Assembly (NCBI GenBank): GCA_039177115.1
Contig: JBCDFZ010000015.1
Coordinates: 10,193 to 74,192 of the forward strand
From: Myxococcota bacterium
Lineage (GTDB): Bacteria > Myxococcota_A > Polyangia > Polyangiales > Houyiibacteriaceae
Length of the DNA stretch: 64,000 nucleotides
Reading direction: 5' to 3'
Shown piece by piece: positions 3,228-44,962 of this stretch (position 1 is its first letter; each line of letters opens with the position of its first letter). Position numbers and translations under genes: made by a program. Under the pieces are notes generated by a model. That model did no database searches and had not been told where the DNA came from. It worked only from the letters and a program-made list of their open reading frames with translations.

Positions 3228-5615
3228 ATGACTGAAACCGATTCCAAAACAAGTGAGACCTCATCGGAGGAGGCCGCGCCTGTGGAATCGCAAGGCGAAG
3301 CTCCGTCCACCCCTAGCCACGCTTCAGATCCGGCGCCCAGCGACGCGACCGCGGCCGATACAGCTCCGTCGAACGAGCCGGCTGTGCCTGCAACGGACTC
3401 GGCCGACGGCGGGCCGGCGGCCGCTGCAAGCGACTCTTCTGCTGACTCGACGCCCGGGGGCGAGGAGGCTGCGCTGACCGAGAGCTCCGCCGGACAGGTT
3501 GCTGCGGATGGGACCAAGAAGAAGCGTCGCCGTCGTCGAAAGAAAAAGGGGAGCCAGGCCGGTGCGAGCGAAGCGCCGGAGGGGAAGGGCGGACATCACA
3601 ATGCGCCGTTTCTTCGTTTCTTCTCGGGGGGCGCGGGTCGCAAGCATGCGTTCTCCGTGGGCGAGGTGATCGCGGGGCGCGTGGAGCGCGTTTCGGAGGG
3701 AGCGATCGTCGTGGACCTGTTCGGGAAGGCGAGCGCCATCGCCGACGCGGACGAGCCGCGCGAAGTTCCGATCATCCTCCAAGAGGAACGGCACTCGGCA
3801 GTGCCCGAGCCGCCTGCAGAAGAAGCCCCGGCCGAGGCCGCACCCCCGAGCCCGAGCGCACCGGCTGAAAGCGCGCCGGCCGAGAGCGTCGCGTCGGAGT
3901 CTCCCGACCCGACGCCGACGCCGTCGGTCGAGTCGGCGCCGGCCCAGCCCTCGGACGCGGACCAGTGGGAGTTCGCCGCCACGCAGACCTCGGACCTTCC
4001 ATATCCGGACCTCGGGGAGGCCGACACCGTCGTCGGCGCGCAGGCGTACGATTTCGAAGCCGACACGGCCGTGGGCGCCCAGCCCTACGACCCGACCGTT
4101 CCGCCGGCGTCGCCCGCGGCACCGTCTCCCGCGCCGGTCCCCGCGGAGCCCTCGGACGCGCCCGCGCCCGACATGACGCAAGCGACGCAGACCATCATCA
4201 GCGAGCCGCCCGCCGAGCAAACCCTGTCGGACGCGCCAGCGCCTACCGACGACGCTCAGACCACACCCCCGCCGCCCGAGGACCTCTCTGACGCGGATCT
4301 CACGCTGCTCGAGCCGCTTCCCGAGGTGGCTGCGCCGGACGTCGGTTCGATCTTCCGAGGCCGAATCGGCGGGGTGGCCGAGAGCGGGCACGTGGTCATC
4401 GTCAACCGCGAGGTCGACAAGCCCGCCGTCCGCAAGGCGATCCGCGCAGCGCGTGAGAATCACCAGCGTGTCCAAGGCGTGGTCTACGGCTTCAATCGAG
4501 GCGGGTTCGACGTCCTCGTCTCCGGCGTCCGTGCGTTCTGCCCGGCCAGCGCGATGTCGCTCACACCCATCGAGGACCCCAACGCGTTCGTCGGAAAGCG
4601 CTGGGAGTTCTCGTTGCCGCAGGACAAGGGCGGCAAGCGCAGCATCATCGTCAGTCGGCGTAGCATTCTCGAGAAGGAGGCGCGGAAGCGCGCTCGTGAA
4701 CGCATGGCTGAGCTCGAGGTGGGCGAGAAGCTCCGTGGCAAGGTCGTCGAGGTGCGCGACTACGGCGTACTGGTCGACCTCGGAGGTGGGCTCGACGGAC
4801 TCGTTCACATGAGTGAGGTGTCGTGGAGTCGCGGGGTGCGACCGAGTGAGGCCGCAAAAGTCGGCGACGAGGTCGACGTTCAGGTCGTGAAGGTGCAGCC
4901 CGCGACGCGAAAAGACCGCTTCGGTCGCGTGTCGCTGTCCATGCGTGCCTGCCAGCCCGACCCGTGGGACCTGGCGCAAGAAACGCTGCGCGTTGGCACA
5001 CCGGCGAAAGGCAAGGTGATTCGAACCACGGAGTTCGGCGCGTTCGTTCAGGTCGCTGAGAACGTCGAGGGTCTCCTGCACATCTCCGAGCTTGGAGGAA
5101 ACAAGGAGCTCACTCACGCGAAGCAGGCCCTCGAGGAGGGGGCCGAGATCGACGTGGTGATCGAGCGCATCGACCGCGAGCAGCGCCGCATTTCGCTGTC
5201 GAAGCTCTCGGAGGCAGACGCCAAGGCAATCGAGGCCGGCGAGATCGAAGTTGGAAAAGCGCCTCGATCGCTCAAGCCCGGGTCGCACATCGCCGTGATG
5301 GTCAAGCGCGTCGAGCACAGTGGCGCCCAGGTTCAGGTCGACGGTGTCATCGGGAAGCGGGGGCGAGGTTTCATTCCCAATCGCGAGCTTCAGGACGTAC
5401 GCGGTGAGCGCCGCAAAGGACCGTCGCAGGGCGACGTCATCGAGGTCAAAGTGATCGGCACGGAGCGAGACGGGACCCTCCGCTGTTCCGTGCGCGCGCG
5501 TCTCCTCGATGAAGAACGCAAGGCCGTCCGCGACTACCGCAAGGAGTCGGCCAAGCAAGGCCTTGGGACCTTTGGGGACCTTCTCAAGGCCAAGCTCGGA
5601 GATCCCGAGAAATAG
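3228..5615 (+). CDS. S1 RNA-binding domain protein (ribosomal protein S1-like) with long disordered N-terminal regions
   Basis: 795-aa ORF with about six S1-like repeats (e.g. VGEKLRGKVVEVRDYGVLVDLGGGLDGLVHMSEVS; VGTPAKGKVIRTTEFGAFVQVAENVEGLLHISEL). The N-terminal ~380 aa are Pro/Ala/Ser/Asp/Glu-rich and include a KKKRRRRRKKK patch. Confidence 0.8.
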   Translation: MTETDSKTSETSSEEAAPVESQGEAPSTPSHASDPAPSDATAADTAPSNEPAVPATDSADGGPAAAASDSSADSTPGGEEAALTESSAGQVAADGTKKKRRRRRKKKGSQAGASEAPEGKGGHHNAPFLRFFSGGAGRKHAFSVGEVIAGRVERVSEGAIVVDLFGKASAIADADEPREVPIILQEERHSAVPEPPAEEAPAEAAPPSPSAPAESAPAESVASESPDPTPTPSVESAPAQPSDADQWEFAATQTSDLPYPDLGEADTVVGAQAYDFEADTAVGAQPYDPTVPPASPAAPSPAPVPAEPSDAPAPDMTQATQTIISEPPAEQTLSDAPAPTDDAQTTPPPPEDLSDADLTLLEPLPEVAAPDVGSIFRGRIGGVAESGHVVIVNREVDKPAVRKAIRAARENHQRVQGVVYGFNRGGFDVLVSGVRAFCPASAMSLTPIEDPNAFVGKRWEFSLPQDKGGKRSIIVSRRSILEKEARKRARERMAELEVGEKLRGKVVEVRDYGVLVDLGGGLDGLVHMSEVSWSRGVRPSEAAKVGDEVDVQVVKVQPATRKDRFGRVSLSMRACQPDPWDLAQETLRVGTPAKGKVIRTTEFGAFVQVAENVEGLLHISELGGNKELTHAKQALEEGAEIDVVIERIDREQRRISLSKLSEADAKAIEAGEIEVGKAPRSLKPGSHIAVMVKRVEHSGAQVQVDGVIGKRGRGFIPNRELQDVRGERRKGPSQGDVIEVKVIGTERDGTLRCSVRARLLDEERKAVRDYRKESAKQGLGTFGDLLKAKLGDPEK

Positions 5616-5690
5616 GCGTGCCTCGAGACAGAGTTTCGCCGCAGAGGCTTGCGGGGGGTCGAGGCGTATGCCAGCTTCCCGCCCCTCATC

Positions 5691-5765
5691 GGGCGCATAA
5701 CTCAGGGGTAGAGTGGTTTCTTCACACGGAACAAGTCGTTGGTTCAAATCCAACTGCGCCCACCA
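5691..5765 (+). tRNA. tRNA-Val (anticodon CAC), CCA encoded
   Basis: Manual cloverleaf. Acceptor GGGCGCA/TGCGCCC, D stem ACTC/GAGT, anticodon stem GTTTC/GGAAC, loop TTCACAC, T arm GTTGG-TTCAAAT-CCAAC, discriminator A followed by CCA. Confidence 0.9.
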
Positions 5766-5798
5766 AAGCTCTCTTCTGGAAACGCCATGTGCGTGAAC

Positions 5799-5822
5799 GG
5801 GGCGACCGTCGCGGGTCGCCCC
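5799..5822 (+). terminator. GC-rich hairpin downstream of tRNA-Val (no T-tract)
   Basis: GGGGCGACC-gtcgcg-GGTCGCCCC is a perfect 9-bp stem. It lies between the tRNA and the meaB start. Confidence 0.3.
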
Positions 5823-5834
5823 GGGGAGTGACCA

Positions 5835-6866
5835 TTGGCTGACCTCGCGACGCTCGTCGACGGAATCCGAAACGCGGAGACTCGCGCTCTCGCGAGAGCG
5901 TGCCGCCTCATCGACGAACGGGACCCACGCGCGTTCAAGCTGCTGAAGGCGCTCTTCGCGCACGACGCGAGTGGATACGTGGTCGGCATCACCGGGACTC
6001 CAGGCTCGGGGAAGAGCACCCTCGTCGACGGACTAATCGCACACTACCGGGCCGCAGACCTTCGGGTGGCGGTTCTCGCGATCGACCCGACGAGCCCCTA
6101 CTCGGGCGGAGCCATTCTCGGCGACCGGATCCGCATGCAGCAACACTTCACCGACGAGGGCGTGTTCATTCGGTCCATTGCGACGCGAGGCCACCTGGGC
6201 GGGCTCTCCCGCTCCACGGGGGACGTGCTTCACGTGCTGAAGGCCGCGAAGTTCGACGTCGTGATCCTGGAAACCGTCGGCGTCGGGCAGGACGAGCTCG
6301 AGGTCACGCGCTTGGCCGACACGACGCTCGTGGTGATGGCCCCCGGGCTCGGAGACGACATCCAGGCCATCAAGGCCGGAATTCTCGAAGTTGCCGACGT
6401 TTTCGCCGTCAATAAGGCCGATCGCGTTGGGGCCGATGCCACGGTTCAGGACCTGCAGCAGATGATGTCGCTCCGCGGCGTTCCCGGCGGGGTCAGCAAG
6501 ATGCAGGGGCATACCGCCGTGTCGACCCTTCGCCGCGGTCCCGCCTTAGAAGCCGGCCAGTGGCTTCCGCCCATCTTGAAAACCGTCGCGCATCGCAGAG
6601 AGGGGCTGAAGGAGCTGGTCGGCGCCTTCGAGGAGCACCGTCGGTTCCTGACGGACACCGAAGCCGGGCTCGCGCGTCGCGAGGCCAGGCGCGCCGAGGA
6701 GTTTCGCGCAATCGTGTACCAGGCTCTCATCGACGAGGCCGACCGTCGCTTCGCCGACGACGTGGAGCGCGGGGTCGGTGACGTCGTCGAAGGGAAAGAC
6801 GACCCCTACTCGGTGGCCGCCGCGCTGGTCCGCCGTGCGTTGGGCGATCCTGACGACGCAGCGTAG
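5835..6866 (+). CDS. meaB: methylmalonyl-CoA mutase-associated GTPase MeaB (ArgK family)
   Basis: 343-aa ORF with a TTG start 6 nt after GGGGAG. It has a P-loop (GITGTPGSGKSTL), DPTSPYSGGAILGDRIRM and NKAD motifs typical of MeaB/ArgK. Confidence 0.9.
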   Translation: MADLATLVDGIRNAETRALARACRLIDERDPRAFKLLKALFAHDASGYVVGITGTPGSGKSTLVDGLIAHYRAADLRVAVLAIDPTSPYSGGAILGDRIRMQQHFTDEGVFIRSIATRGHLGGLSRSTGDVLHVLKAAKFDVVILETVGVGQDELEVTRLADTTLVVMAPGLGDDIQAIKAGILEVADVFAVNKADRVGADATVQDLQQMMSLRGVPGGVSKMQGHTAVSTLRRGPALEAGQWLPPILKTVAHRREGLKELVGAFEEHRRFLTDTEAGLARREARRAEEFRAIVYQALIDEADRRFADDVERGVGDVVEGKDDPYSVAAALVRRALGDPDDAA

Positions 6867-29592: not shown

Positions 29593-31338
29593 ATGGCTGA
29601 AGCAGGCACAGCGACAATCGAGAGCCAGGACGCCCATGTGGTGAGCCACGGGCACGACGAGCACCATCACGAGCAGAGCTTCTGGAGCAAGTACATTTTC
29701 TCGGTCGACCACAAGGTCATCGCGATGCAGTACATGTTCACCGGCATCGTGATGGCGCTGATCGGCGGGTACATGTCCTACGTGTTCCGCATGCAGCTCG
29801 CCTACCCAGGAGAGAGTGTCCCAGGATACGGGGCGGTGTCCCAAGGCGAGTACAACGCCATGGTCACAAACCACGGCACCATCATGATTTTCTGGGTCGC
29901 CATGCCGATGCTGATTGCGGCCTTCGGCAACTACCTCATCCCGCTGATGATCGGCGCGGACGACATGGTCTTTCCGCGGATCAATCGGCTTTCTTACCAG
30001 ATCTTTCTGGTCAGCGCGGTCATTCTCTTGGTGTCGCTGTTCGTGCCGGGCGGCGGTTTTGGTGGCGCGTGGACCGCGTACCCGCCGCTCTCGGCAAACG
30101 CGGAGTACAACCTGACGCCGCTCGGAGCACAGCTTTGGATTGTGGCCGTGGCGCTCGAGTTCGTCGCGTTCCTCTTAGGCGGCATCAACTTCATCACGAC
30201 GCTCATGAACTCTCGCGCACCCGGGATGAAGATGTACGACATCCCGATGGTGCTCTGGATGATCGTCATTGCCAGCGTGCTCTTCATGGCCTCGGTCGGC
30301 CCGCTCATCGCCGGCGCTGTCATGCTGTTCATGGACCAGAGCATCGGAACCGGGTTCTTCGACCCGAATCGCGGCGGTGACCCAATCCTCTGGCAGCACC
30401 TCTTCTGGTTCTTCGGGCACCCCGAGGTGTACGTCGTGCTGTTGCCCGCCATGGGCATCGTGGCTGACGTGATGTGCACCTTCGCCCGCAAGAAGCTCTT
30501 CAACTACAAGCTGATCCTCTTCACCGTGTTCGCCACGGGCATCATCAGCTTCTTCGTGTGGGCGCACCATCAGTTCGTTGCCGGCATCGACCCGCGCATG
30601 GCCAACGTGTTCACCGTGACCACGCTCATCATCTCGATACCCATCGCCGAGATGCTGTTCCTGTACATCGCCACGTTGTACGGCGGGTCAATCCAGCTCA
30701 CCACGCCGATGCTCTGGGCACTCGCCTTCATCGCCGAGTTCTTGATCGGCGGCGTGACGGGCATCTTCCTCGGGGCGAGCGGTGCCGACATTTACTTCCA
30801 CGACACCTACTTCGTCCTCGCGCACTTCCACTATACGTTCTTCCCCATCGCCATCATCGGCTTCTTCTGCGGGCTCACGTATTGGTTCCCGAAGATGTTC
30901 GGGAAGATGATGAACGAAACGCTAGGGAAGATTCACTTCTGGGGCACGGTCATTCCGTTCAACTGCATCTTCATCCCGCTGTTCATTCTCGGTGCCGCGG
31001 GGCAGAACCGGCGTATCTACAACTTCCAGAATTACCCGGACCTCGCAGGGCTGCAGGACCTGCGTATCTTTGCGACGACGGCGCTCTTGGTCATGCTGGC
31101 CTTCCAGGCGGTCTTCCTGATCAACTTCGTGGTGAGCCTCATCAAGGGGAAGCCCGCCGGGAAGAACCCTTGGAAGAGCAACACCCTCGAATGGACGACG
31201 CAGTCGCCGCCTCCCCACGGCAACTGGCCGGAAGGTCTCCCCAACTGCTACCGCGGCCCGTACGAGTACAGCGTCCCGGGTCGAGAAGAAGACTACTGGC
31301 CGCAGAACGTGCCGCCAGACACGGCCCCCGCCGAGTGA
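29593..31338 (+). CDS. ctaD: cytochrome c oxidase subunit I
   Basis: 581-aa ORF. WFFGHPEVYVVLLPAMG, WAHHQF and HFHYTF are heme-copper oxidase signatures. Confidence 0.95.
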   Translation: MAEAGTATIESQDAHVVSHGHDEHHHEQSFWSKYIFSVDHKVIAMQYMFTGIVMALIGGYMSYVFRMQLAYPGESVPGYGAVSQGEYNAMVTNHGTIMIFWVAMPMLIAAFGNYLIPLMIGADDMVFPRINRLSYQIFLVSAVILLVSLFVPGGGFGGAWTAYPPLSANAEYNLTPLGAQLWIVAVALEFVAFLLGGINFITTLMNSRAPGMKMYDIPMVLWMIVIASVLFMASVGPLIAGAVMLFMDQSIGTGFFDPNRGGDPILWQHLFWFFGHPEVYVVLLPAMGIVADVMCTFARKKLFNYKLILFTVFATGIISFFVWAHHQFVAGIDPRMANVFTVTTLIISIPIAEMLFLYIATLYGGSIQLTTPMLWALAFIAEFLIGGVTGIFLGASGADIYFHDTYFVLAHFHYTFFPIAIIGFFCGLTYWFPKMFGKMMNETLGKIHFWGTVIPFNCIFIPLFILGAAGQNRRIYNFQNYPDLAGLQDLRIFATTALLVMLAFQAVFLINFVVSLIKGKPAGKNPWKSNTLEWTTQSPPPHGNWPEGLPNCYRGPYEYSVPGREEDYWPQNVPPDTAPAE

Positions 31339-35883: not shown

Positions 35884-36885
35884 TCAGTCTTCGAGCCGGA
35901 TGCGCGGGTCGAGCGCGGCCACGGCCACGTCGGCCAGCAGGTTCCCCACTTGAACGGCGATTCCGAACATCAGGACCACCGCCATGATGACCGGCGCGTC
36001 GAGGGATTGGATCGCTTCGATGGTGAGCAGCCCCAAGCCGGGCCAGGCGAAGATTTTTTCCGTGATGATGGCGCCGCCGACGAGCAGCGGGAGGCTCAGG
36101 CCAACGAGCGTGACCACGGGAAGAAGCGCATTCCGGATGCCGTGCCTCAAAACGACGCGCGCGGGAGGCACACCCTTGGCTCGCGCCGTCCGGACGTGGT
36201 CGTGACGCATCGTTTCGACGAGCTCACCCCGCATCACGCGCGCGTACGTGGCGGCTCCGGCGATGGCGAGGATGAAGGCCGGCAGGATGCCGTGGTAGAC
36301 GTGGTCGAGTGGGTCGACCCCGTATCCGCCGAAGGGAAACCAGCCGAGGAGGAACGACAGCACCAAAAGCGCAATGGGTCCGGTGACGTACGTCGGAAGA
36401 CTGATCCCGAGGAAAGTCGCGAACATGATGGTCGTGTCGGACCAGCGGTTTCGACGAAGTGCGGCGAGGATCCCCGCGGTGAGGCCAATCAAGAGCTCGA
36501 AGAAGATGGCCATCGATGCGAGCAGCATCGTGCGTGGCATACGATAGCGAATGACGTTCGCGACAGACTCGTGGTGCGAGTACGACTCTCCGAGGTCCCC
36601 CTGGAGGATGCCGCAGTACCCCCGACTCCCGTCTTCGTTTTCATACCTCGGCGAGTCTTTGCGGACGCACGGGACGGCCCCGAGGTAGCTGAGGAACTGA
36701 GACGGGATCGGCTGGTCCAAGCCTTTCTTCGCTTTGAAGTCTGCGATTTGCTCTGCGCGCGCCTGGGGGCCGAGAATGGTTGCCGCCGGGTCACCTGCGA
36801 CGAAAATCAGAAAGAAGACCAGCGTGAGCACGGACAGCAAAACCACGAGGCCCCAGAACCCCCGCTTGATGAGGAACCTTGCCAT
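35884..36885 (-). CDS. ABC transporter permease (DppB/OppB-like)
   Basis: Start ATG 36885 (MARFLIKRGFWGLVVLL) overlaps the SBP stop TAA by 1 nt. The EAA-loop region is RTARAKGVPPARVVLRHGIRNALLPVVT. Confidence 0.85.
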   Translation of the reverse strand: MARFLIKRGFWGLVVLLSVLTLVFFLIFVAGDPAATILGPQARAEQIADFKAKKGLDQPIPSQFLSYLGAVPCVRKDSPRYENEDGSRGYCGILQGDLGESYSHHESVANVIRYRMPRTMLLASMAIFFELLIGLTAGILAALRRNRWSDTTIMFATFLGISLPTYVTGPIALLVLSFLLGWFPFGGYGVDPLDHVYHGILPAFILAIAGAATYARVMRGELVETMRHDHVRTARAKGVPPARVVLRHGIRNALLPVVTLVGLSLPLLVGGAIITEKIFAWPGLGLLTIEAIQSLDAPVIMAVVLMFGIAVQVGNLLADVAVAALDPRIRLED

Positions 36886-38648
36886 TACGGTGTGGCCTCC
36901 TCGGCGTAGCGATCTTGGCTCACCCGGCGTCGAGGGAGGTCGAGCCACACGTTTCGGTATTCGTTGAGCCAGACGGGGTGCGGCCGGAAGTTCTTGACGT
37001 AGGGCTGCCAGACGAACAGTTCGACGGGGTAGAAGAGGAAGACCCACGGAGCGTCCGTGGCCAAGATCGCGTTGGCCTCTGCGTACAGCTCCAGCCTCTT
37101 CGCGCGGTCGATCTCCGCGCGCCCGCGGTCGAGGATCTTATCGAGCTTCGGGTTCCGATAGAACGCACGGTTCTCTGAGTTCTCGGGATGAATCGAGCGG
37201 CTGTGAAAGAGGATGTCCATGAAGTTCGATGCGTCCGGGAAGTCTTGGTGCCAGCCGCTGAAGGCCATCGGGACGACCCGGGGCCTGCCCGCCTCCTTCA
37301 GGTAGGTCGCAAACGTGACGGTCTTGAGCTCGAGGTCGATTCCAATTGCCTTGAGGTCCTGTTGAAAGAGCTGTCCGTACAGGGCCTCGCCGTCGGTGCG
37401 AACCCACATCTCGATGGGCTCGGGCAGCCCGTTTGGATATCCTGCGAGACGCATCTCTTCCTTCGCGTCTTCGAGGTCGTAGCGCTGACCCTGGGGCAGC
37501 TCCGGGTCGTAGGGTGGAAGCGTCGGGGGCAGGATCTGCGTGGCAGGGATCACACTTCCCGGGTCCAGTCGCTCGATCTTCGAGCGATCGACTGCGTAGG
37601 CGATCGCGCGGCGGACATGCACGTTGTCGAGCGGAGGAAGCTCGCAGTTCAACGTCAGTGCGAACAAGCCCGCCGACGGCACTTCGGTGACGAACGGCGC
37701 CCACGCTTCGGACTCGCGGAAGAACAGGCGGTTCACTTTGCTCGGTCGGTACAGGATGTCGAGGCCGCCGTTGCGAAACCGCGCGCTTGCCACGTCCGGG
37801 GAGATGTTCTCGAGGAAGACCATGTGCGCGACCCGTGGGCGCGGGTTCCAGTAGTCGTCGAAGCGGTCGAACTCCACCTGAACGCCGCGCTCCCAGCGCT
37901 TCAGGGCAAACGGTCCGGTGCCGACCGGGTGCCTTCCGACCGCCGTGACTCCCTCGGCCGCTTCCCAAGCCTCGACGTGCTCGCGGGGCAACGGAGACGC
38001 GAACGGCATGGCAAGCGCATTGAGGAACGTCTGATCGGGTTCGGTGAGCCGGAACTCGATGGTGTAGTCGTCGATGACGACGATTCCTTCGACTCGGTCG
38101 ACCTGGCCGTTGTGGTAGGCCTGCGCGCCGACGATGGACTTGTAGAACGGGTAGCCTGGCGAACCGAGACGCTCGCTCAAGAGGCGATGCATCGTCCAAG
38201 AGACGTCCTCGGCAACCAACTCACGTCCGTTGTGGAACTTCACGCCTTTGCGAAGCTCGAATCGAAACACTCGCCCTTCGTCGGAAATCTCGGGCAAATC
38301 CTTCGCGAGGCTGGGGATGAAGTTCCCGTCGTAGTCGTAGTCGAGAAGGGCGTCGTAGAGCAGCCGGCAAGCCGCCGTAGAGAGGGTGTCGTACGCAAAC
38401 GCCGGGTCCATCGTATGGATGTTGCTGCTTTCAGCAAAGATGAAGGTGCCCCCAGGGTTCGGGGTTTCGCTGCCTGCGCCGACGAACCGAGGACCGATGG
38501 GAGGCCTCGGAAGATGCGTTGCCACCCACCCGGCGAGTAGGACGCCGAGCGCAAGCGCAGCCACGGCGGCAACCCAGCCCGGAACGCGGGGGCTAGTCTT
38601 TGGGGTCGAACGCATCGCGAAGTCCTTCCCCGAAGAGGTTGAAGCCAA
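36885..38648 (-). CDS. ABC transporter substrate-binding protein, family 5 (peptide/nickel type)
   Basis: 587-aa ORF with an N-terminal TM/signal segment and family-5 SBP-like sequence throughout. The start may be ATG 38615. Confidence 0.8.
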   Translation of the reverse strand: MASTSSGKDFAMRSTPKTSPRVPGWVAAVAALALGVLLAGWVATHLPRPPIGPRFVGAGSETPNPGGTFIFAESSNIHTMDPAFAYDTLSTAACRLLYDALLDYDYDGNFIPSLAKDLPEISDEGRVFRFELRKGVKFHNGRELVAEDVSWTMHRLLSERLGSPGYPFYKSIVGAQAYHNGQVDRVEGIVVIDDYTIEFRLTEPDQTFLNALAMPFASPLPREHVEAWEAAEGVTAVGRHPVGTGPFALKRWERGVQVEFDRFDDYWNPRPRVAHMVFLENISPDVASARFRNGGLDILYRPSKVNRLFFRESEAWAPFVTEVPSAGLFALTLNCELPPLDNVHVRRAIAYAVDRSKIERLDPGSVIPATQILPPTLPPYDPELPQGQRYDLEDAKEEMRLAGYPNGLPEPIEMWVRTDGEALYGQLFQQDLKAIGIDLELKTVTFATYLKEAGRPRVVPMAFSGWHQDFPDASNFMDILFHSRSIHPENSENRAFYRNPKLDKILDRGRAEIDRAKRLELYAEANAILATDAPWVFLFYPVELFVWQPYVKNFRPHPVWLNEYRNVWLDLPRRRVSQDRYAEEATP

Positions 38649-39444
38649 ACACCGCCATGCTGATGAGCACCGCGGGATAGAGGGTGAGCCGTGGCACGCC
38701 GAGCAGAAGCGACTGGCTGTTGCTGAGCATCGAGCCCCAGCTGGAAGTCGGCGGGCGGACGCCTAGGCCAAGGTACGAGAGTGCGCTCTCTGCGATGATC
38801 ATTCTCGCCACGAGTATGGTGGCAATCGCGACGATCGGACCGGCAACGTTCGGGAGGATGTGGCGAACGAGGACGCGAAAGTGCCGGAGCCCGAGTGCCC
38901 GAGCCGCCTGGACGTAGTCGAGCTCGCGCGCCTCCATGGTTTTGGCGCGCGTGATTCGGGCGAGCGTGGTCCAACTCAACACCCCGAGCACCACGCAGAT
39001 GGTCCAGATCCCCGGTTTGTCCCAGACCCGCTGCATCACGATGGCGAGCAGCAGAAACGGCATGGAGAGCACGATGTCGACGAAACGCATCAAGGCGGCA
39101 TCGACTCGACCGCCCACGTAGCCGGCAACGAGACCGAGGAGCACGCCAATCACGACCGCGATGGCTGTGGCAACGTAGGCCACGAGCATCGACACGCGCG
39201 CACCCGATAGGAGGCGGCTCAGCTCGTCTCGGCCGAGCAGGTCGCCTCCGAGTCGATGCCCGGGCGACACGTCTGGGCCTGCAGGGAGGCCGTTCGAGAG
39301 GAGAAGCGACGGAAACTGCTCCCCAGGGTCGTAGGGCGCCAGCCAGGGCCCCAGCACGCCGAGCAGGGTCACCGCGACCACCAGGACCAGCCCGGCGAGT
39401 GCCCCCTTGTTCCGCCGAAAGCGTCGAAACGCCCGAGAATCCAT
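38593..39444 (-). CDS. ABC transporter permease (DppC/OppC-like)
   Basis: 283-aa ORF. YVQAARALGLRHFRVLVRHILPNVAGPIV is the EAA-loop region. Confidence 0.85.
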   Translation of the reverse strand: MDSRAFRRFRRNKGALAGLVLVVAVTLLGVLGPWLAPYDPGEQFPSLLLSNGLPAGPDVSPGHRLGGDLLGRDELSRLLSGARVSMLVAYVATAIAVVIGVLLGLVAGYVGGRVDAALMRFVDIVLSMPFLLLAIVMQRVWDKPGIWTICVVLGVLSWTTLARITRAKTMEARELDYVQAARALGLRHFRVLVRHILPNVAGPIVAIATILVARMIIAESALSYLGLGVRPPTSSWGSMLSNSQSLLLGVPRLTLYPAVLISMAVFGFNLFGEGLRDAFDPKD

Positions 39445-39690
39445 GCGTTTGTGGGCGTAGTGGCTTCCTGGCGACTCGTCAATTTACCCAGTGTGGTGGG
39501 TTGAAGAGCGGGGCAGGGCGCCTCTCGTGGCACGGGAACCGACTCGCGCCGAGACCGTCATGGGGCCTCTGTCGCCCGATCACCTGGATCGGCGATTCGC
39601 TGCCGAGTCAGCGGTCTCATAGGGATCTTAAGCACCTAATAAGGATCTCCACTGATACCTCCGATGGATGAAAGCCTGTCGGTGAGAACC

Positions 39691-39784
39691 AATTTTCATC
39701 ATTAAATCAGCAATTTACTCGTCAATGCATTTTAGCGTTGACATGTTTATTTTGAATAGAATACATTCGCTATAAGTTATTCAA
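39691..39784 (+). promoter_or_regulatory. strongly AT-rich leader/promoter region upstream of the MerR-like gene
   Basis: 25 G/C in 94 nt (~27% GC) in a ~2/3 GC context. It contains TTGACA (39738-39743), TAGAAT (39757-39762), TATAAG (39771-39776, 8 nt before ATG 39785) and the inverted pair GTCAA(39721)...TTGAC(39738). Confidence 0.5.
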
Positions 39785-40342
39785 ATGACTCTACCCAGAG
39801 GACAACATAGAGCACATCGAGAACCGGAGCGGAGCTGGTCGGAGACCGAGCTCGACGAGCTGGAGCAGGCCCACGCGAACGGGATGAGCGTCCAGCAGAT
39901 CGTCGACGCGTTTACGGCGAGGGGCTCGCGGCTCACCGAGGCGACGTTCCGCAAGTACGTCCAGCTCGGGCTTCTCCCGCGGAGCGTGCGCGTCGGGCGC
40001 AAGGGTAAGCACCGAGGGTCCCAGGGGCTCTATCCGGCGACGGCGGTCCGGCAGATCGACCACATCCGTCGCCTGATGAATCAAGGCTTCACGATGGAGG
40101 AAATCCAAAAGGAGTTCCTCTTCGTTCGAGGCGACATCGACGCCCTGAGCCGGCAGCTCAATCGCGTCTATCAGGCGATCGACAACGCCGTTCAGGAGCA
40201 GCAGCGCGAGGGCGGGGACGACCCCGGCGTATCCGACGCGCTCCACGAAGTTCGCGAGCTCGGCAAGGAGCTCGTTCAAAAACTCGAGGTCATCGAGCGA
40301 CGCCTGACGATGCGCGCCCGCATGGCCCGAGCCGCCGTCTGA
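39785..40342 (+). CDS. MerR-like HTH protein with C-terminal coiled-coil-like region
   Basis: 185-aa [13 protein letters not shown]...[13 protein letters not shown]...[31 protein letters not shown] follows the MerR N-terminal HTH/wing pattern, with an inserted basic loop. Confidence 0.6.
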
Positions 40343-40364
40343 CGAGTTGGAGGGGGAAAGACCA

Positions 40365-40892
40365 ATGCAGGACGCAGCAAGTGTGAAGAAGGATGCCGAG
40401 GCAACGGGAGAAGAAGAAGAGCGCGAATCGCTGGCCGACGCGCTCGCGGATCCCGATCAGGAAGAGCGACGGGGCCGTCGGAAGCGCAGATCGAGGGCTC
40501 GCGCAAGGACCATCTCGATACGTCGCCTGAGCAAGGCCGAGCTCAATCGCGGTCGCGAGCTGTATCCCGAGACCGACTATTGGAAGCCCAAGAGCCGCTC
40601 CGAGTGCAAGGACATGGAACGGCCGTGCCCGTTCGTCTCCTGCAAGTACCACCTCTACATCGACGTTCATCCCGTGCGAGGGTCCATCAAGCTCAACTTC
40701 CCGGACCTCGAGATCTGGGAGATGACCGAGACCTGCGCGCTCGACGTGGCCGACCGCGGAGGCATCACCCTCGAGGAGGTCGGCGAGATCATGAACCTCA
40801 CTCGAGAGCGCGTGCGGCAGGTGGAAACCGCCGGGCTTGCGCGTCTTCAAGACTTCCAGGGAGTCGACCGCCTCAAAGATTACGTGACCTAG
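40365..40892 (+). CDS. sigma-70 region-4-like HTH protein lacking region 2
   Basis: ATG 40365 lies 8 nt after GGAGGGGG; the track ORF starts at TTG 40347. The N-terminus is highly charged. It has a Cys cluster ([18 protein letters not shown]...ETC) and then [31 protein letters not shown], a typical region 4.2 HTH. Confidence 0.6.
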
Positions 40893-40920
40893 TCGCCACT
40901 CCAAGGGCCATCAGGGGGGA

Positions 40921-40950
40921 GGGTGTCGCCGAAAGGCGGCACCCTTTTTT
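40921..40950 (+). terminator. canonical intrinsic terminator
   Basis: GGGTGTCGCC-GAAA-GGCGGCACCC followed by TTTTTT, 29 nt after the stop at 40892. Confidence 0.75.
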
Positions 40951-41023: not shown

Positions 41024-42055
41024 GTGAGGACCTTGGCTTTGTGTTTCGTGGCCCTGCTGGCCGTTGGGTGTGGTGACGACGACAGCGGCCCCGGAGGGTC
41101 CGGCGGGACGGCCGGCTCCGGAGGAAGTGGAGGCGATGGCGGAGCGGGCGGAACCGGCGGCTCCGAGGCCCCGCTGCTCGATGAGTACGTCCTCGAAGAC
41201 GAGATGCTCGTCCCGGAGAGCGGCACGTTCGATTCGGTTGGTCGGAACTTCTACGTCGGAAGCGCGACGGAGGGCAGCGTGACCCGCGTGGCGGCCGACG
41301 GCGCCGAAGAGGTGTTCTTCGAGCCCGAGGGCGACAACTGGCGGACCCTCGGCATGGTGGCCGATGTGGAAGCGCGGCGCCTGTGGGTCTGCGCGCAGCG
41401 CACTGACCCCGTAGAGCAACAGATCTGGGTTCTCGACCTCGATTCGGGTGTGCAGAGCTTGGTTCTCGACATCCAGGACGACGCCGCGGCCGACGGCACG
41501 TGCAACGACGTCGCCCTCGACGCGGGCGGCCTCGCCTACGTGAGCGACTCGAGCAACCCGCGCATCTACCGCGCCGACGCTGAGGAAGAGTCGATTACCA
41601 CTTGGGCAGACGATCCGCTTCTCGGACCGGACGGCGGCAGCTTCGGTGGAAACGGCATTGCGGTGACCGAGGACGATGCGTTCGTGTTGCTCTCGAAGAC
41701 CTTCGCGTCGCAGATGTCGCCGCGGTTCCTCCGAATCAATCGCGCTGACCCGTCGGATATCGAAGGGATCGCCACCACCCCGGAGCTAGCGGGGACCGCG
41801 GACGGGATGAGCTTCCTCGACGGCGTGCTGTACCTCTCGCTGGTGGCCGAGGGCGACGTGCTCCGGATTGCCTCGGACGACGACTGGGCCACCGCCACCA
41901 TCGCGAGTACCGCGGCCGTCTCGGGGACCTCGACGGTGCGCCCTGCCGAGGGGCGGCTCTACGCGATTTACAGCGATATCACCAACTCCCTGCTTGGCCT
42001 GCCTCTGAATCCGCCGTTCCGGATCTTCGAGGTGGACCTCGATTCGTTCGAGTGA
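41024..42055 (+). CDS. lipoprotein, possibly beta-propeller (SMP-30/gluconolactonase/LRE-like)
   Basis: GTG 41024 follows GGGAGG. The lipobox is LLAVGC, followed by a GGS/GGT linker. Repeated strand-like segments (e.g. NGIAVTEDDAFVLLSK) are present. The fold assignment is a guess. Confidence 0.5.
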   Translation: MRTLALCFVALLAVGCGDDDSGPGGSGGTAGSGGSGGDGGAGGTGGSEAPLLDEYVLEDEMLVPESGTFDSVGRNFYVGSATEGSVTRVAADGAEEVFFEPEGDNWRTLGMVADVEARRLWVCAQRTDPVEQQIWVLDLDSGVQSLVLDIQDDAAADGTCNDVALDAGGLAYVSDSSNPRIYRADAEEESITTWADDPLLGPDGGSFGGNGIAVTEDDAFVLLSKTFASQMSPRFLRINRADPSDIEGIATTPELAGTADGMSFLDGVLYLSLVAEGDVLRIASDDDWATATIASTAAVSGTSTVRPAEGRLYAIYSDITNSLLGLPLNPPFRIFEVDLDSFE

Positions 42056-42065
42056 GCGAGCCGAC

Positions 42066-44429
42066 TTGTCAGGCCGGACTCCGCCCCGTACGGTGCGCGC
42101 CGTCGTGACCCGAGCGGCCGCAGCCATCTTCCTTGTCTTCTTGGTGAGCGCCACGGCGGCTGCCGATGAGCCTGCGTGCCCCCCGGGGAACCTGCTGGCC
42201 GGAAAAGCGCCGAGTCAGTCAAGCGGCGTCGGCGCGCCAAGCCGGCTCACCAACGGCGTGATGGCCAACGAGGGCGAGGCTTGGGACAGCACGCTCACGA
42301 GCAAGATCGACGCCGGCGGATACCTGGTGTACGACCTCGGCGCGCCGACGCGGATTACCGCGCTCGACCTCCAGGGTGACAACAACGACGAGTACCTCGT
42401 CGACATCTCCGACGACGGGCAGTCCTTCACCCAGATCTGGTCTGGGGACCCGGTGCGCGGCGAGGGCATGCGGCGCCGCAACGTACGCGGCCTCGACGCG
42501 GTGGGCCGATACCTCCGTTTTCGGGCCCAAGGTGGGGACAACTACTACAGCCTCAGTGAGGTTCAGGCGTTCTGTCAGCCCCCCGCGTCGTGGCCGCCCC
42601 CGGTCGAGCTGAAAGGAACCGGCGCCTGGTGGTGGAAGAACCTGATGAAGAAGCGGGACCACCGCTACCGGCTCGGGCTCAACGTACTCGGGCTGCTGTT
42701 CTTCCTGGCGCTCTTCGCCGCGAGCGAGCGCAAGCGGCTGCTCGGAATCGCGGTTGTGCTCGCGCTCGCAATGCTCGGCCTGTCGACCTATCGCTTCTAC
42801 GGTGCTCGGCATGCGCCCTGGTTTGCCGAGTGGGGGGTTTACGTCGTGGGCGCGGGGCTTGCCCTGTATCTGCTCGGTGGCTGGATACGTGCCAAACGGG
42901 AGTCGGCGGCGCTTTGGTGGGAGCGCGGCGCGCTGGTTTGCGTCATCGTCGCGTGCGCCGCGGCGTGGGTGAACTTTGGCGTCTATCACAGCTCGCGCAT
43001 CGTTCACTACTGGGACACCTTCCACTACTACATCGGGTCGAAGTACTACGAGGAGAACGAGTACGAACGCCTGTACGAGTGCGTCCTCGCCGCCGACTAC
43101 CAGGACCGAGGCGCGGCCGACTTGCGCAAGCGCAAGATCCGCGACCTCGGCGACAACCGACTTCACTACCTCACCGAGGACGACGTCAAGCGCTACGAGG
43201 AGACCTGTGTCTCGCACTTCTCTCCGGAGCGCTGGGAGGCGTTCAAGCAGGACGCCCGCTCGTTCCGCACCGTCATGGGGACGTCTTGGTGGCGCGACAT
43301 GGTCATGGACCACGGGTACAACGCGAGCCCGATCTCCAACATGGTTGCCGCAGCGCTGACGAACGTCGGGTGGGCGAGCCAAGTCCCGGACGACCCGACG
43401 GTCCGCGTGCGCCCGGACGACATGAAAACGTTCAGGACTCGGATTCTCCGATACGCGACGATCGACTTCGCCCTCTACGGGCTCTCCTTCTTGATGATCC
43501 TCTGGGCGTTCGGCCTTCGAAGCTGCGCGCTCGCGGTGCTCGTCTGGGGAACCGGATATCCGTGGGCGTACTTCTGGACTGGGGGCAGCTTCGCCCGCGT
43601 GCCGTGGTTCTTCATGGCCGTGGCCGCGGTCTGTCTGCTGAAGAAGGGGTGGCCCTTCCTATCGGGATTTTCGCTCTCTTGGAGCGCACTCCTCCGGCTG
43701 TTCCCGGCCGCGCTCGCGGGAGGGCCGGGCGCCGCCATCGTCGACCGCTTCATTCGACGAAAGAAGATCGACCGGCCTTGGCTGAACACCGAAGACAAAC
43801 GGTTCATTGCCGGTGGGCTCGTGGGTGTGTTGGTTCTTTGCTCGTTCAGCCTCGCCATCAACGGCGTGGAAGCGCACACGCGCTTCCTCGGCAACACGCT
43901 GAAGCACGCCGAGACGCCGCTCACCAACCACATGGGGCTCCCGACGTTGCTGTCCTACCGGCCGAGCAAGGTCGGTCGCTACACCAAGGACCAAAGCCTC
44001 GAAGACCCCTGGCAGAACTGGAAGCAGACCCGCAAAGACACCAAGCACGACCGTCGCTGGGCCCAAGCGCTCATCCTGCTTGGGATGTTCCTGCTGCTCG
44101 CCGTGGCGGGGCGGAAGATGGAAAGCTGGGCGCTCCTCGCTAGCAGTACCATCCTCATCATCGGGTTCTTCGAGCTGACCTGCTACTACTACAGCTTCGT
44201 CATACTCATGGCCCCGGTGGCGATCGACCGCCTTCGGCATGTCGTCGCGCTGATCCTCATGGTCACCGCGGGGCTCGTGATTCAGTTCCTCGTGGGTTGG
44301 TACGACGAGCAGTATCTCCTCGAGACCCTCGCGTGCCTGCTTCCGCTGCTGTACATCATCGGCGACATCGGGGCGACGACCCCGCCTTTTCGAGCCTCTC
44401 CCGAGCCTCGTTTGGGGTCCGCAAGCTGA
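42066..44429 (+). CDS. polytopic membrane protein with N-terminal F5/8 type C (discoidin)-like domain
   Basis: TTG start. A signal peptide is followed by YLVYDLGAPTRITALDLQGDNNDEYLVDISDDGQSF...YLRFRAQGGDNYYSLSEVQAF (discoidin-like), then more than 10 hydrophobic helices. Confidence 0.6.
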   Translation: MSGRTPPRTVRAVVTRAAAAIFLVFLVSATAAADEPACPPGNLLAGKAPSQSSGVGAPSRLTNGVMANEGEAWDSTLTSKIDAGGYLVYDLGAPTRITALDLQGDNNDEYLVDISDDGQSFTQIWSGDPVRGEGMRRRNVRGLDAVGRYLRFRAQGGDNYYSLSEVQAFCQPPASWPPPVELKGTGAWWWKNLMKKRDHRYRLGLNVLGLLFFLALFAASERKRLLGIAVVLALAMLGLSTYRFYGARHAPWFAEWGVYVVGAGLALYLLGGWIRAKRESAALWWERGALVCVIVACAAAWVNFGVYHSSRIVHYWDTFHYYIGSKYYEENEYERLYECVLAADYQDRGAADLRKRKIRDLGDNRLHYLTEDDVKRYEETCVSHFSPERWEAFKQDARSFRTVMGTSWWRDMVMDHGYNASPISNMVAAALTNVGWASQVPDDPTVRVRPDDMKTFRTRILRYATIDFALYGLSFLMILWAFGLRSCALAVLVWGTGYPWAYFWTGGSFARVPWFFMAVAAVCLLKKGWPFLSGFSLSWSALLRLFPAALAGGPGAAIVDRFIRRKKIDRPWLNTEDKRFIAGGLVGVLVLCSFSLAINGVEAHTRFLGNTLKHAETPLTNHMGLPTLLSYRPSKVGRYTKDQSLEDPWQNWKQTRKDTKHDRRWAQALILLGMFLLLAVAGRKMESWALLASSTILIIGFFELTCYYYSFVILMAPVAIDRLRHVVALILMVTAGLVIQFLVGWYDEQYLLETLACLLPLLYIIGDIGATTPPFRASPEPRLGSAS

Positions 44430-44449: not shown

Positions 44450-44962
44450 ATGAACACGCGTGCGCTCTTCGGACTCGCGCTGCTCGTGGTGGGCTGCGCT
44501 GGCGGTAGCGGTATCGAGACGGCTTGTCCGAGTGGCCGGGTGGCGCTGTGCGACAATCCTTCTGATACACTGGCCTGCTGCCAGGAATTCAAGTGTGACG
44601 ACGGGCGTATCGTTCCTTGTTCGAGCCTCGCGCGGGCGGAGTGTCAAACGCAGGTGTGTGACCGCGTGGTCGACTTCGACCCCACCATGCCTGGCACCGG
44701 GGGCACCGGCGGCGGCATGTCGGGGACGGGCGGCATGGGCGCAACCGGGGGCGACCCGGGGCCTGGCGGCACGGGCGGCACTGGCGGCACGGGCGGCGTA
44801 GGCGGCACGGGCGGTGCCGGGGGTGCAGGCGGGGTCGGCGGCGCAGGAGGCGTGGGCGGTGTCGGCGGCGTGGGTGGAACTGGCGGCGCCGGTGGCGTCG
44901 GCGGCACCGGTGGTGCAGGCGGCGTAGGCGGCTCGGGCGGGGCCGCTGGCGCATCCACGTAG
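44450..44962 (+). CDS. lipoprotein with Cys-rich domain and long (GGX)n tail
   Basis: The lipobox is LLVVGC. There are eight Cys in residues ~26-70, followed by ~90 residues of GGT/GGV/GGA triplets. Confidence 0.65.
   Translation: MNTRALFGLALLVVGCAGGSGIETACPSGRVALCDNPSDTLACCQEFKCDDGRIVPCSSLARAECQTQVCDRVVDFDPTMPGTGGTGGGMSGTGGMGATGGDPGPGGTGGTGGTGGVGGTGGAGGAGGVGGAGGVGGVGGVGGTGGAGGVGGTGGAGGVGGSGGAAGAST
44684..44959 (+). repeat. in-frame GGN-GGC-NNN tandem repeats encoding (GGX)n
   Basis: Visible 9-nt periodicity (ggcggcacg / ggcggcgtg / ggtgcaggc ...) within the CDS above. Confidence 0.7.

Follow-up and report, generated by a model that had tools for sequence, protein, structure and literature searches.

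A conserved gene pair of a MerR-like protein and a probable counterpart of the developmental regulator AsgB in Myxococcota

RESULTS

Two adjacent genes are obligate neighbors in Myxococcota

We analyzed a stretch of 64,000 nucleotides (nt), here termed the window, from the genome of a Myxococcota bacterium (GenBank assembly GCA_039177115.1, contig JBCDFZ010000015.1, positions 10,193 to 74,192). It contains a unit of two small genes that is preceded by an AT-rich promoter region and followed by an intrinsic terminator (Table 1). Gene 1 encodes a MerR-like protein (protein 1), whereas the only recognizable domain of the gene 2 product (protein 2) is a helix-turn-helix of the type present in region 4.2 of sigma-70 factors. 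A preliminary description made from the sequence alone had presented the two genes as a self-contained transcription factor module, and our analysis supports this view.

Table 1. Features of the two-gene unit and its surroundings, in window coordinates
Feature	Position	Strand or location	Details
Gene 2, 175-aa AsgB-type protein	40365-40892	+	Pfam, NCBIfam, PDB sequences, alignment, AlphaFold2
Gene 1, 185-aa MerR-like winged helix-turn-helix protein	39785-40342	+	Pfam MerR_1
Predicted sigma-70-type promoter TTGACA-N18-TACATT	39738-39767	+	10/12 consensus matches
17-bp dyad, predicted MerR-like operator	39746-39762	in -35/-10 spacer	family consensus ATTCnnTTnAAnnGAAT; window TTTATTTTGAATAGAAT
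GAATACATTC near-palindrome	39759-39768	overlaps -10 hexamer	GAATA 95-100%, TTC 94-97% conserved
Predicted short leader without Shine-Dalgarno sequence	39768-39784	+	-10 ends 17 nt 5' of ATG 39785
Shine-Dalgarno sequence GGAGGGGG of gene 2	40349-40356	+	8 nt 5' of gene 2 ATG
Intrinsic terminator	40921-40950	+	10-bp GC-rich stem GGGTGTCGCC-GAAA-GGCGGCACCC (40921-40944), then T6 (40945-40950)
AT-rich island	39650-39784	inside divergent intergenic region 39445-39784 (340 nt)	GC 0.31-0.39 per 100-nt window
OppC-like permease gene, first of divergent Opp-type ABC transporter operon	38593-39444	-	open reading frame list

An exhaustive search of 1.84 billion cluster representatives with protein 2 returned 7476 clusters with E ≤ 1e-3, of which 815 reached E ≤ 1e-30. 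When one genome per species was scanned, close relatives were present in at least 573 species genomes, mostly from Polyangiales, Sandaracinaceae, and other Myxococcota metagenome-assembled genomes (MAGs). In all fetched gene 2 loci that offered upstream room (79/79), the MerR-like gene was found directly upstream on the same strand. The reverse test, starting from the MerR-like gene in metagenomes, located gene 2 downstream in 69 of the 70 loci with room. The script used for this test reported 67 loci with gene 2 adjacent, 10 without room, and 3 from which it was apparently missing; in two of these three, L201 and L244, gene 2 is present in an overlapping reading frame. The sole MerR-like locus with room that has no gene 2, L229 (200-1898), carries a minus-strand membrane protein gene instead and may have arisen by rearrangement or be a chimera of the assembly. 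We conclude that the genes are obligate neighbors; a lack of conserved adjacency in other genomes, which the preliminary description would have taken as a refutation, was not observed. The same arrangement was observed in Sorangium sp. So ce1036, where protein 1 is 52% identical, and in a distant MAG labeled "Deltaproteobacteria," where it is 35% identical. The typical myxobacterial pair, along with its synteny, was also seen in MAGs labeled "Coxiellaceae" and "Salinibacteraceae" (L016 and L075), whose contigs are probably misbinned or mislabeled rather than indicative of a wider host range.

Protein 2 combines a region 4.2-type helix-turn-helix with a conserved cysteine module

The sole Pfam match of protein 2, and of 146 of its 148 aligned relatives, is Sigma70_r4 (PF04545), which in protein 2 covers model positions 20 to 49 of 50 at residues 133 to 162. 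Pfam detected no region 2 (Sigma70_r2), and the superfamily model of sigma-70 and extracytoplasmic function (ECF) factors, TIGR02937, scored 23.6 bits, as compared to a cut-off of 42.9, and did so through region 4 alone. Since the only match is a partial Sigma70_r4 and the superfamily model stays below its cut-off, protein 2 is not a sigma factor. Pfam and NCBIfam thus agree with the earlier statement that it possesses a 4.2-type helix-turn-helix (residues 134 to 163) but no region 2, and no full-length alignment with ECF sigma factors was obtained.

The best NCBIfam and PDB matches of protein 2 were to the C terminus of RpoD/SigA (e.g., PDB 4g6d and 1ku7). Residues 132 to 174 align with the last 43 residues of SigA/RpoD, the segments TLEEVG and TRER.RQ.E being identical, and both proteins share an RLKD(F/Y) tail. 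In contrast to SigA/RpoD, protein 2 lacks regions 1 to 3 and does not contain a complete region 4 (4.1 and 4.2), as the first half is unmatched and its place is taken by a cysteine module. This module follows an N terminus that is acidic and then rich in arginine, and its four cysteines are spaced C81-x6-C88-x4-C93-x30-C124, without any CxxC motif. The cysteine cluster of the preliminary description is therefore present, but with C-x6-C rather than C-x8-C as its first interval.

The alignment of the 148 diverse relatives (~50% identity) revealed that P75, R78, C81, P87, C88, C93, P113, and C124 are invariant, whereas H96, the TRERxRQxE helix, and several other positions are nearly so; within the helix, T146, R147, E148, R149, R151, Q152, and E154 are invariant or nearly invariant. 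The conservation of four cysteines in an otherwise divergent family argues for a metal site, which may hold zinc or an iron-sulfur cluster. The cysteine module itself is not covered by any sequence profile of Pfam, NCBIfam, PHROGs, or the PDB. Protein 2 has no zinc-ribbon or WhiB-like (Wbl) match in Pfam and no significant family in PHROGs v4, and PADLOC returned just a region 4.2 echo of MzaA.

AlphaFold2 modeling with the 148 relatives yielded a mean predicted local distance difference test (pLDDT) score of 83.5, with 94 to 96 per 10-residue block for residues 51 to 160; this run replaced an earlier one with 19 close relatives (pLDDT 45). In the model, short strands and helices that bear the cysteines are predicted to precede three helices that match the latter half of sigma region 4. 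In Foldseek searches of the PDB, all matches had E > 0.3 and covered only ~48 residues, from region 4 of SigA; residues 41 to 120 gave no match. Among the top matches, by way of the sigma chain, were complexes of Wbl proteins with SigA region 4 (PDB 6ono, 8d5v, and 8cyf). These complexes resemble protein 2 in joining a cysteine site, which binds metal in Wbl proteins and is predicted to do so in protein 2, to a region 4 fold. However, the Wbl complexes have the cluster protein on one chain and sigma region 4 on another, whereas protein 2 is a single polypeptide. The cysteine motif of Wbl proteins is C-xn-C-x2-C-x5-C, and both this spacing and the paired CxxC of zinc ribbons differ from that of protein 2.

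The likeness to the primary sigma factor also admits the idea that protein 2 mimics sigma region 4 through protein contacts, either docking onto the beta-flap of RNA polymerase or acting as a sponge for anti-sigma factors or activators directed at region 4, rather than through DNA. The resemblance of the C-terminal 43 residues to the primary sigma factor persists up to the very end, RLKDY tail included, and residues 55 to 175 remain ~85% identical even where protein 1 is down to ~55%, as would fit contact with a conserved machine. Yet the half of region 4 that helps to form the flap-tip pocket in sigma factors, the first, is precisely the part replaced by the cysteine module. The best-conserved positions of protein 2 are those of the TRERxRQxE motif, whose sigma counterparts contact -35 DNA. 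Moreover, just one of the four basic residues through which region 4 of Escherichia coli sigma-70 presumably contacts activators appears to be kept, so that this patch of SigA seems largely absent from protein 2. With the first half of region 4 unmatched and the positions aligned with sigma DNA contacts conserved best, we consider a mimic unlikely. The same evidence weakens the decoy role suggested in the preliminary description, in favor of which we found nothing: the residues aligned with TRERIRQIE of sigma are kept.

Protein 1 is a MerR-like protein without a recognizable sensor

Protein 1 matched MerR_1 (PF13411) at residues 46 to 109 with E = 3.2e-6 and 27.6 bits (cut-off 21.6), in agreement with its initial classification as MerR-like. 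A further, weak match, to the MerR structure 4ua1, spans the recognition helix, the wing, and the following helices. The protein possesses a 45-residue N-terminal extension and a long helical tail. Pfam and NCBIfam searches revealed no second domain and no C-terminal effector or metal-binding domain. Within the MerR family, the winged helix-turn-helix and long helical region are shared in particular with members that have no ligand-binding domain, such as HspR and BldC. Protein 1 differs from the family in its N-terminal extension, in having no cysteine and no recognizable sensor, and in being encoded almost always just upstream of an AsgB-type gene.

The protein ends in RARMxRAxV, which is almost invariant among relatives that share 64 to 90% identity overall. 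This basic tail corresponds to residues 178 to 185 (window positions 40317 to 40339) and could be a docking or degradation signal.

The strict co-occurrence of both genes and the restriction of protein 2 to region 4 bring to mind a split, two-subunit sigma factor such as SigO-RsoA of Bacillus subtilis, which is likewise encoded by two adjacent genes, one of them providing region 4-type recognition. Protein 2 would then recognize the -35 element, and protein 1 would be responsible for the -10 element and melting. However, Pfam gave no Sigma70_r2 signal in protein 1, which has the MerR_1 and 4ua1 matches instead, and relatives of protein 2 exist without a partner. As protein 1 is MerR-like and devoid of region 2, a split sigma factor is extremely unlikely.

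The promoter contains a near-invariant operator-like dyad

The preliminary description had drawn attention to a stretch of 94 nt with 25 G/C at 39691 to 39784. These coordinates are correct, and no part of the 64 kb has a lower guanine-plus-cytosine (GC) content: the lowest value for 100 nt is 0.27, as compared to a mean of 0.64 and to 0.46 in the next lowest unrelated stretch. The island is AT-rich in every close relative. A scan of the region identified three promoter-like sites, as opposed to 0.3 in shuffled sequences, in line with the several promoter-like hexamers mentioned previously. The -35 element TTGACA (39738 to 39743) and the likely -10 element TACATT (39762 to 39767) are conserved across relatives. 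In the 74 unique upstream sequences of related loci, TTGAC is 97 to 100% conserved, and the core TTGAC-N4-TTC-N2-TT-N-A-N3-GAATA-N2-TTC was present in 76 of 79 loci (74 distinct sequences). Each position of this core, in which TTGAC is followed by the 17-bp dyad in the spacer and then by GAATACATTC, is 92 to 100% conserved, whereas the flanking DNA is variable.

The hexamer TATAAG (39771 to 39776), for which the preliminary description gave the correct position 8 nt before ATG 39785, was also considered as the -10 element. It was rejected because it is conserved in the closest clade only, while distant relatives keep TTGAC-N18-TACATT.

The spacer between the -35 and -10 elements is the usual place of MerR family operators. 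The symmetric TT, TT, and A positions of the dyad in the spacer of the promoter adjacent to protein 1 are 92 to 100% conserved in the 74 unique sites, and the dyad is retained in the Sorangium locus L084. We read the dyad from the per-position consensus, and its operator role is a prediction. A single copy of GAATACATTC is present in the window, and the search for further operator copies in the window gave just a weak palindrome at 30951 to 30969 that is probably due to chance.

ATG 39785 is the first possible start of gene 1, with an in-frame stop at 39773 to 39775. Given this stop and the conservation of the N terminus of protein 1 in the alignment, the leader from this promoter has at most 17 nt. 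The leaderless or short-leader mRNA proposed earlier is hence plausible. Transcription would begin near 39773 to 39775, leaving a leader of some 10 to 12 nt. In distant relatives, just 16 to 25 nt separate the -10 element from AAATGAC. An Rfam search of the region returned sub-threshold chance matches alone. Gene 2 follows after a gap of 22 nt, constant in close relatives, and is predicted to have a strong ribosome-binding site of its own.

The stem and T6 terminator recognized in the preliminary description folds with -30.5 kcal/mol (z = -3.4). Its stem recurs in 39 related loci, where the loops vary, changes within the stem are compensatory, and T5 to T7 follows.

Solo copies of protein 2-type genes are found in phages and elsewhere on chromosomes

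Relatives of protein 2 with 43 to 69% identity are encoded on 265 viral contigs of IMG/VR. We fetched 80 of these loci (L092 to L171; median GC 0.68), none of which contained the MerR-like partner; the cysteine motif is kept in 67 of 81 viral homologues. One viral copy (L103:3872-4570) is situated among baseplate hub and wedge genes (neighbors at 1573-2706 and 5012-6592), and paralogues of protein 2 were found in prophage-like operons together with Dam, RuvC, Toprim, and DUF927. Given these partnerless copies, in phages as well as elsewhere on chromosomes, the gene 2-type domain is probably a self-sufficient transcription factor, and the MerR-like gene accompanies only the chromosomal orthologue group. 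The two-component switch of both proteins suggested in the preliminary description gains no support from the solo relatives, which point to an ability to work alone.

These phage-borne relatives, together with the striking low-GC island, could mean that a phage or another mobile element left the pair behind or carried it as cargo, and that the island is foreign DNA. However, the low GC is limited to ~150 nt of promoter, both coding regions having the GC content of the genome, and the same divergent ATP-binding cassette (ABC) operon adjoins the pair in 66 of 75 genomes. Furthermore, plasmid and cultured-phage collections contained no match to the cysteine module, and neither flanking attachment sites nor an integrase was seen at the locus. 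In view of the normal coding GC, the synteny with the ABC operon, and the lack of a partner in the viral loci, we regard a mobile origin as very unlikely.

In L085:5346-12511 and L089:1-9318, the paralogues are embedded in extended series of small, overlapping genes with roles in replication or recombination (AAA_25; HNH, Dam, RuvC, Toprim, and DUF927), which look like integrated elements in Myxococcota genomes. In a further locus (L086:5001-7210), a solo paralogue and a gene for a Ser/Thr protein kinase are arranged tail-to-tail. Kinase genes that adjoin HTH-Xre genes are upregulated in an asgB mutant of Myxococcus xanthus (PMC3986340).

Neighboring genes

The divergent ABC operon is of the Opp type and comprises genes for a permease, a substrate-binding protein, and a permease (window 35884 to 39444, minus strand), and it diverges from the AT-rich intergenic region. 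The orthologue of its OppC-like permease in L001 has Pfam matches to OppC_N and BPD_transp_1. The 66 loci mentioned above have a divergent homologue no more than 1.5 kb 5' of the MerR-like gene; counterparts were seen in L001, L003, L084, and most of L004 to L083. The operon is a conserved neighbor that may or may not belong to the module. Two minus-strand promoter-like sites (39756 to 39729 and 39725 to 39698) overlap the plus-strand promoter, and co-regulation of the ABC operon and the two-gene unit is possible. The A-signal consists of peptides and amino acids and is AsgB-dependent; a link between peptide import and this signal is only a thought.

On the other side of the unit, a gene for a 787-aa multi-pass membrane protein (42066 to 44429, plus strand) is located 3' of the operon in most close relatives; in L001, the orthologous protein matches F5_F8_type_C faintly. 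A glycine-rich lipoprotein-like gene (41024 to 42055, plus strand) lies between both in some genomes only. The open reading frame at 44450 to 44962 (plus strand) has an N terminus with cysteine followed by long (GGTGG/GGAGG)n glycine-rich repeats, and the opposite strand reads as proline-rich repeats.

DISCUSSION

Relationship to AsgB

Plamann et al. reportedly proposed in 1994 (J Bacteriol 176:2013) that AsgB of M. xanthus binds -35-like TTGACA sequences, an idea that the preliminary description raised again for a protein with region 4 only. AsgB (MXAN_2913) is a DNA-binding protein of 163 aa, of which the C-terminal ~30 residues match sigma-70 region 4, pfam04545 (PMC3986340). Like protein 2, it is thus a small Myxococcota protein (163 versus 175 aa) whose sole recognizable domain is a C-terminal region 4.2-type helix-turn-helix of ~30 aa (PF04545), without region 2. 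The gene arrangement may also be alike: MXAN_2912 is a co-directional small gene upstream of asgB that is thought to head the operon (PMC4320627, supplementary file 6), and the positions given in PMC4320627 place its start 567 bp before that of asgB, as compared to start-to-start distances of 580 bp in the window and 553 bp in the distant locus L090. The RefSeq name of AsgB, "DNA-binding protein" (PMC6791715 supplement), is also that of P0005 and P0309 of the gene 2 family. The hosts differ, since AsgB is from Myxococcus and gene 2 from a Polyangia-type genome, and the two were compared by description only; no named Myxococcus member appeared among the listed family proteins. The matching descriptions, the taxon, and the gene spacing make it very probable that gene 2 is the counterpart of asgB.

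AsgB was reported by Plamann in 1994 to be essential for growth (as cited in PMC4320627); stable asgB disruptions were made later (PMC3986340). It has no fitness scores in a 2026 transposon study. The literature searched contained no biochemical or structural study of AsgB, and no mention of a four-cysteine module, a MerR-like partner, an operator-like dyad, or phage relatives for this protein. The preliminary description held that no system of this composition had been described. This claim falls, because the key component is a regulator of the AsgB kind, that is, a small protein with only a region 4.2-like domain (PMC3986340) and a co-directional gene upstream (PMC4320627).

A probably autoregulated operon of two DNA-binding proteins

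We propose, with a probability of about 0.7, that the two genes form a chromosomal operon, probably autoregulated, for a pair of DNA-binding transcription factors of Myxococcota, with gene 2 encoding the AsgB counterpart. Protein 2 would be an ordinary free-standing transcription factor that recognizes TTGACA-like hexamers and controls a broad regulon, with the four cysteines holding a metal (zinc or an iron-sulfur cluster) that would staple the N-terminal module onto the helix-turn-helix. Protein 1 would act as a MerR-like dimer without a sensor cysteine that binds the dyad in the spacer of its own promoter and so sets the level of both proteins. The mRNA would start ~10 to 12 nt before the first ATG, and gene 1 would hence be translated without a Shine-Dalgarno sequence.

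Several points weigh against this proposal. MerR-activated promoters typically have a spacer of 19 to 20 bp, whereas that of the window has 18 bp (TACATT) or 17 bp (ATACAT), and the pair of the distant locus L090 has no dyad. The MerR_1 match of protein 1 is weak (E = 3e-6) and merely "faint" in the precomputed matches of its relatives. The orthology with AsgB depends on matching descriptions and gene spacing, the metal site is suggested solely by the conservation of the cysteines, and both DNA binding and transcription at the locus are predictions.

An extension of the proposal, which we consider rather doubtful, is that AsgB-type proteins are metal cluster-bearing stand-ins for sigma region 4 that operate in a promoter-resident switch with the MerR-like partner. 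The four cysteines and His96 would hold zinc or a redox- or iron-sensitive iron-sulfur cluster that gates the helix-turn-helix occupying TTGACA; the C-x6-C-x4-C-x2-H spacing is one that we take to resemble the cluster-binding motif of IscR. With the MerR-like protein in the adjacent spacer, the pair would compete with or replace region 4 of the housekeeping sigma factor, and the solo copies in phages of high-GC bacteria would serve to redirect transcription of the host. Such a switch would fit the overexpression of iron acquisition genes in the M. xanthus asgB mutant (PMC3986340).

Significance

The module is real, well defined, and strongly conserved, and its key component is of an already described kind. 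New with respect to the literature searched are a MerR-like partner that is obligate, a promoter with a near-invariant operator-like element, a site of four cysteines, and relatives borne by phages. As a regulator of Myxococcus development, AsgB has been known by name since 1989-1994, and the locus and its relatives offer several handles on it, namely, the obligate partner, a near-invariant candidate operator in the promoter of the operon, the invariant four-cysteine site, and a confident structural model, which make its long-unresolved mechanism more testable. For annotation, such pairs may be labeled as AsgB-type regulator and MerR-like partner, replacing "sigma factor-like protein" and "MerR family regulator." Since conservation of the family extends far beyond the fruiting myxobacteria and phages carry it as well, we argue that its role is a general transcriptional one and not specific to development.

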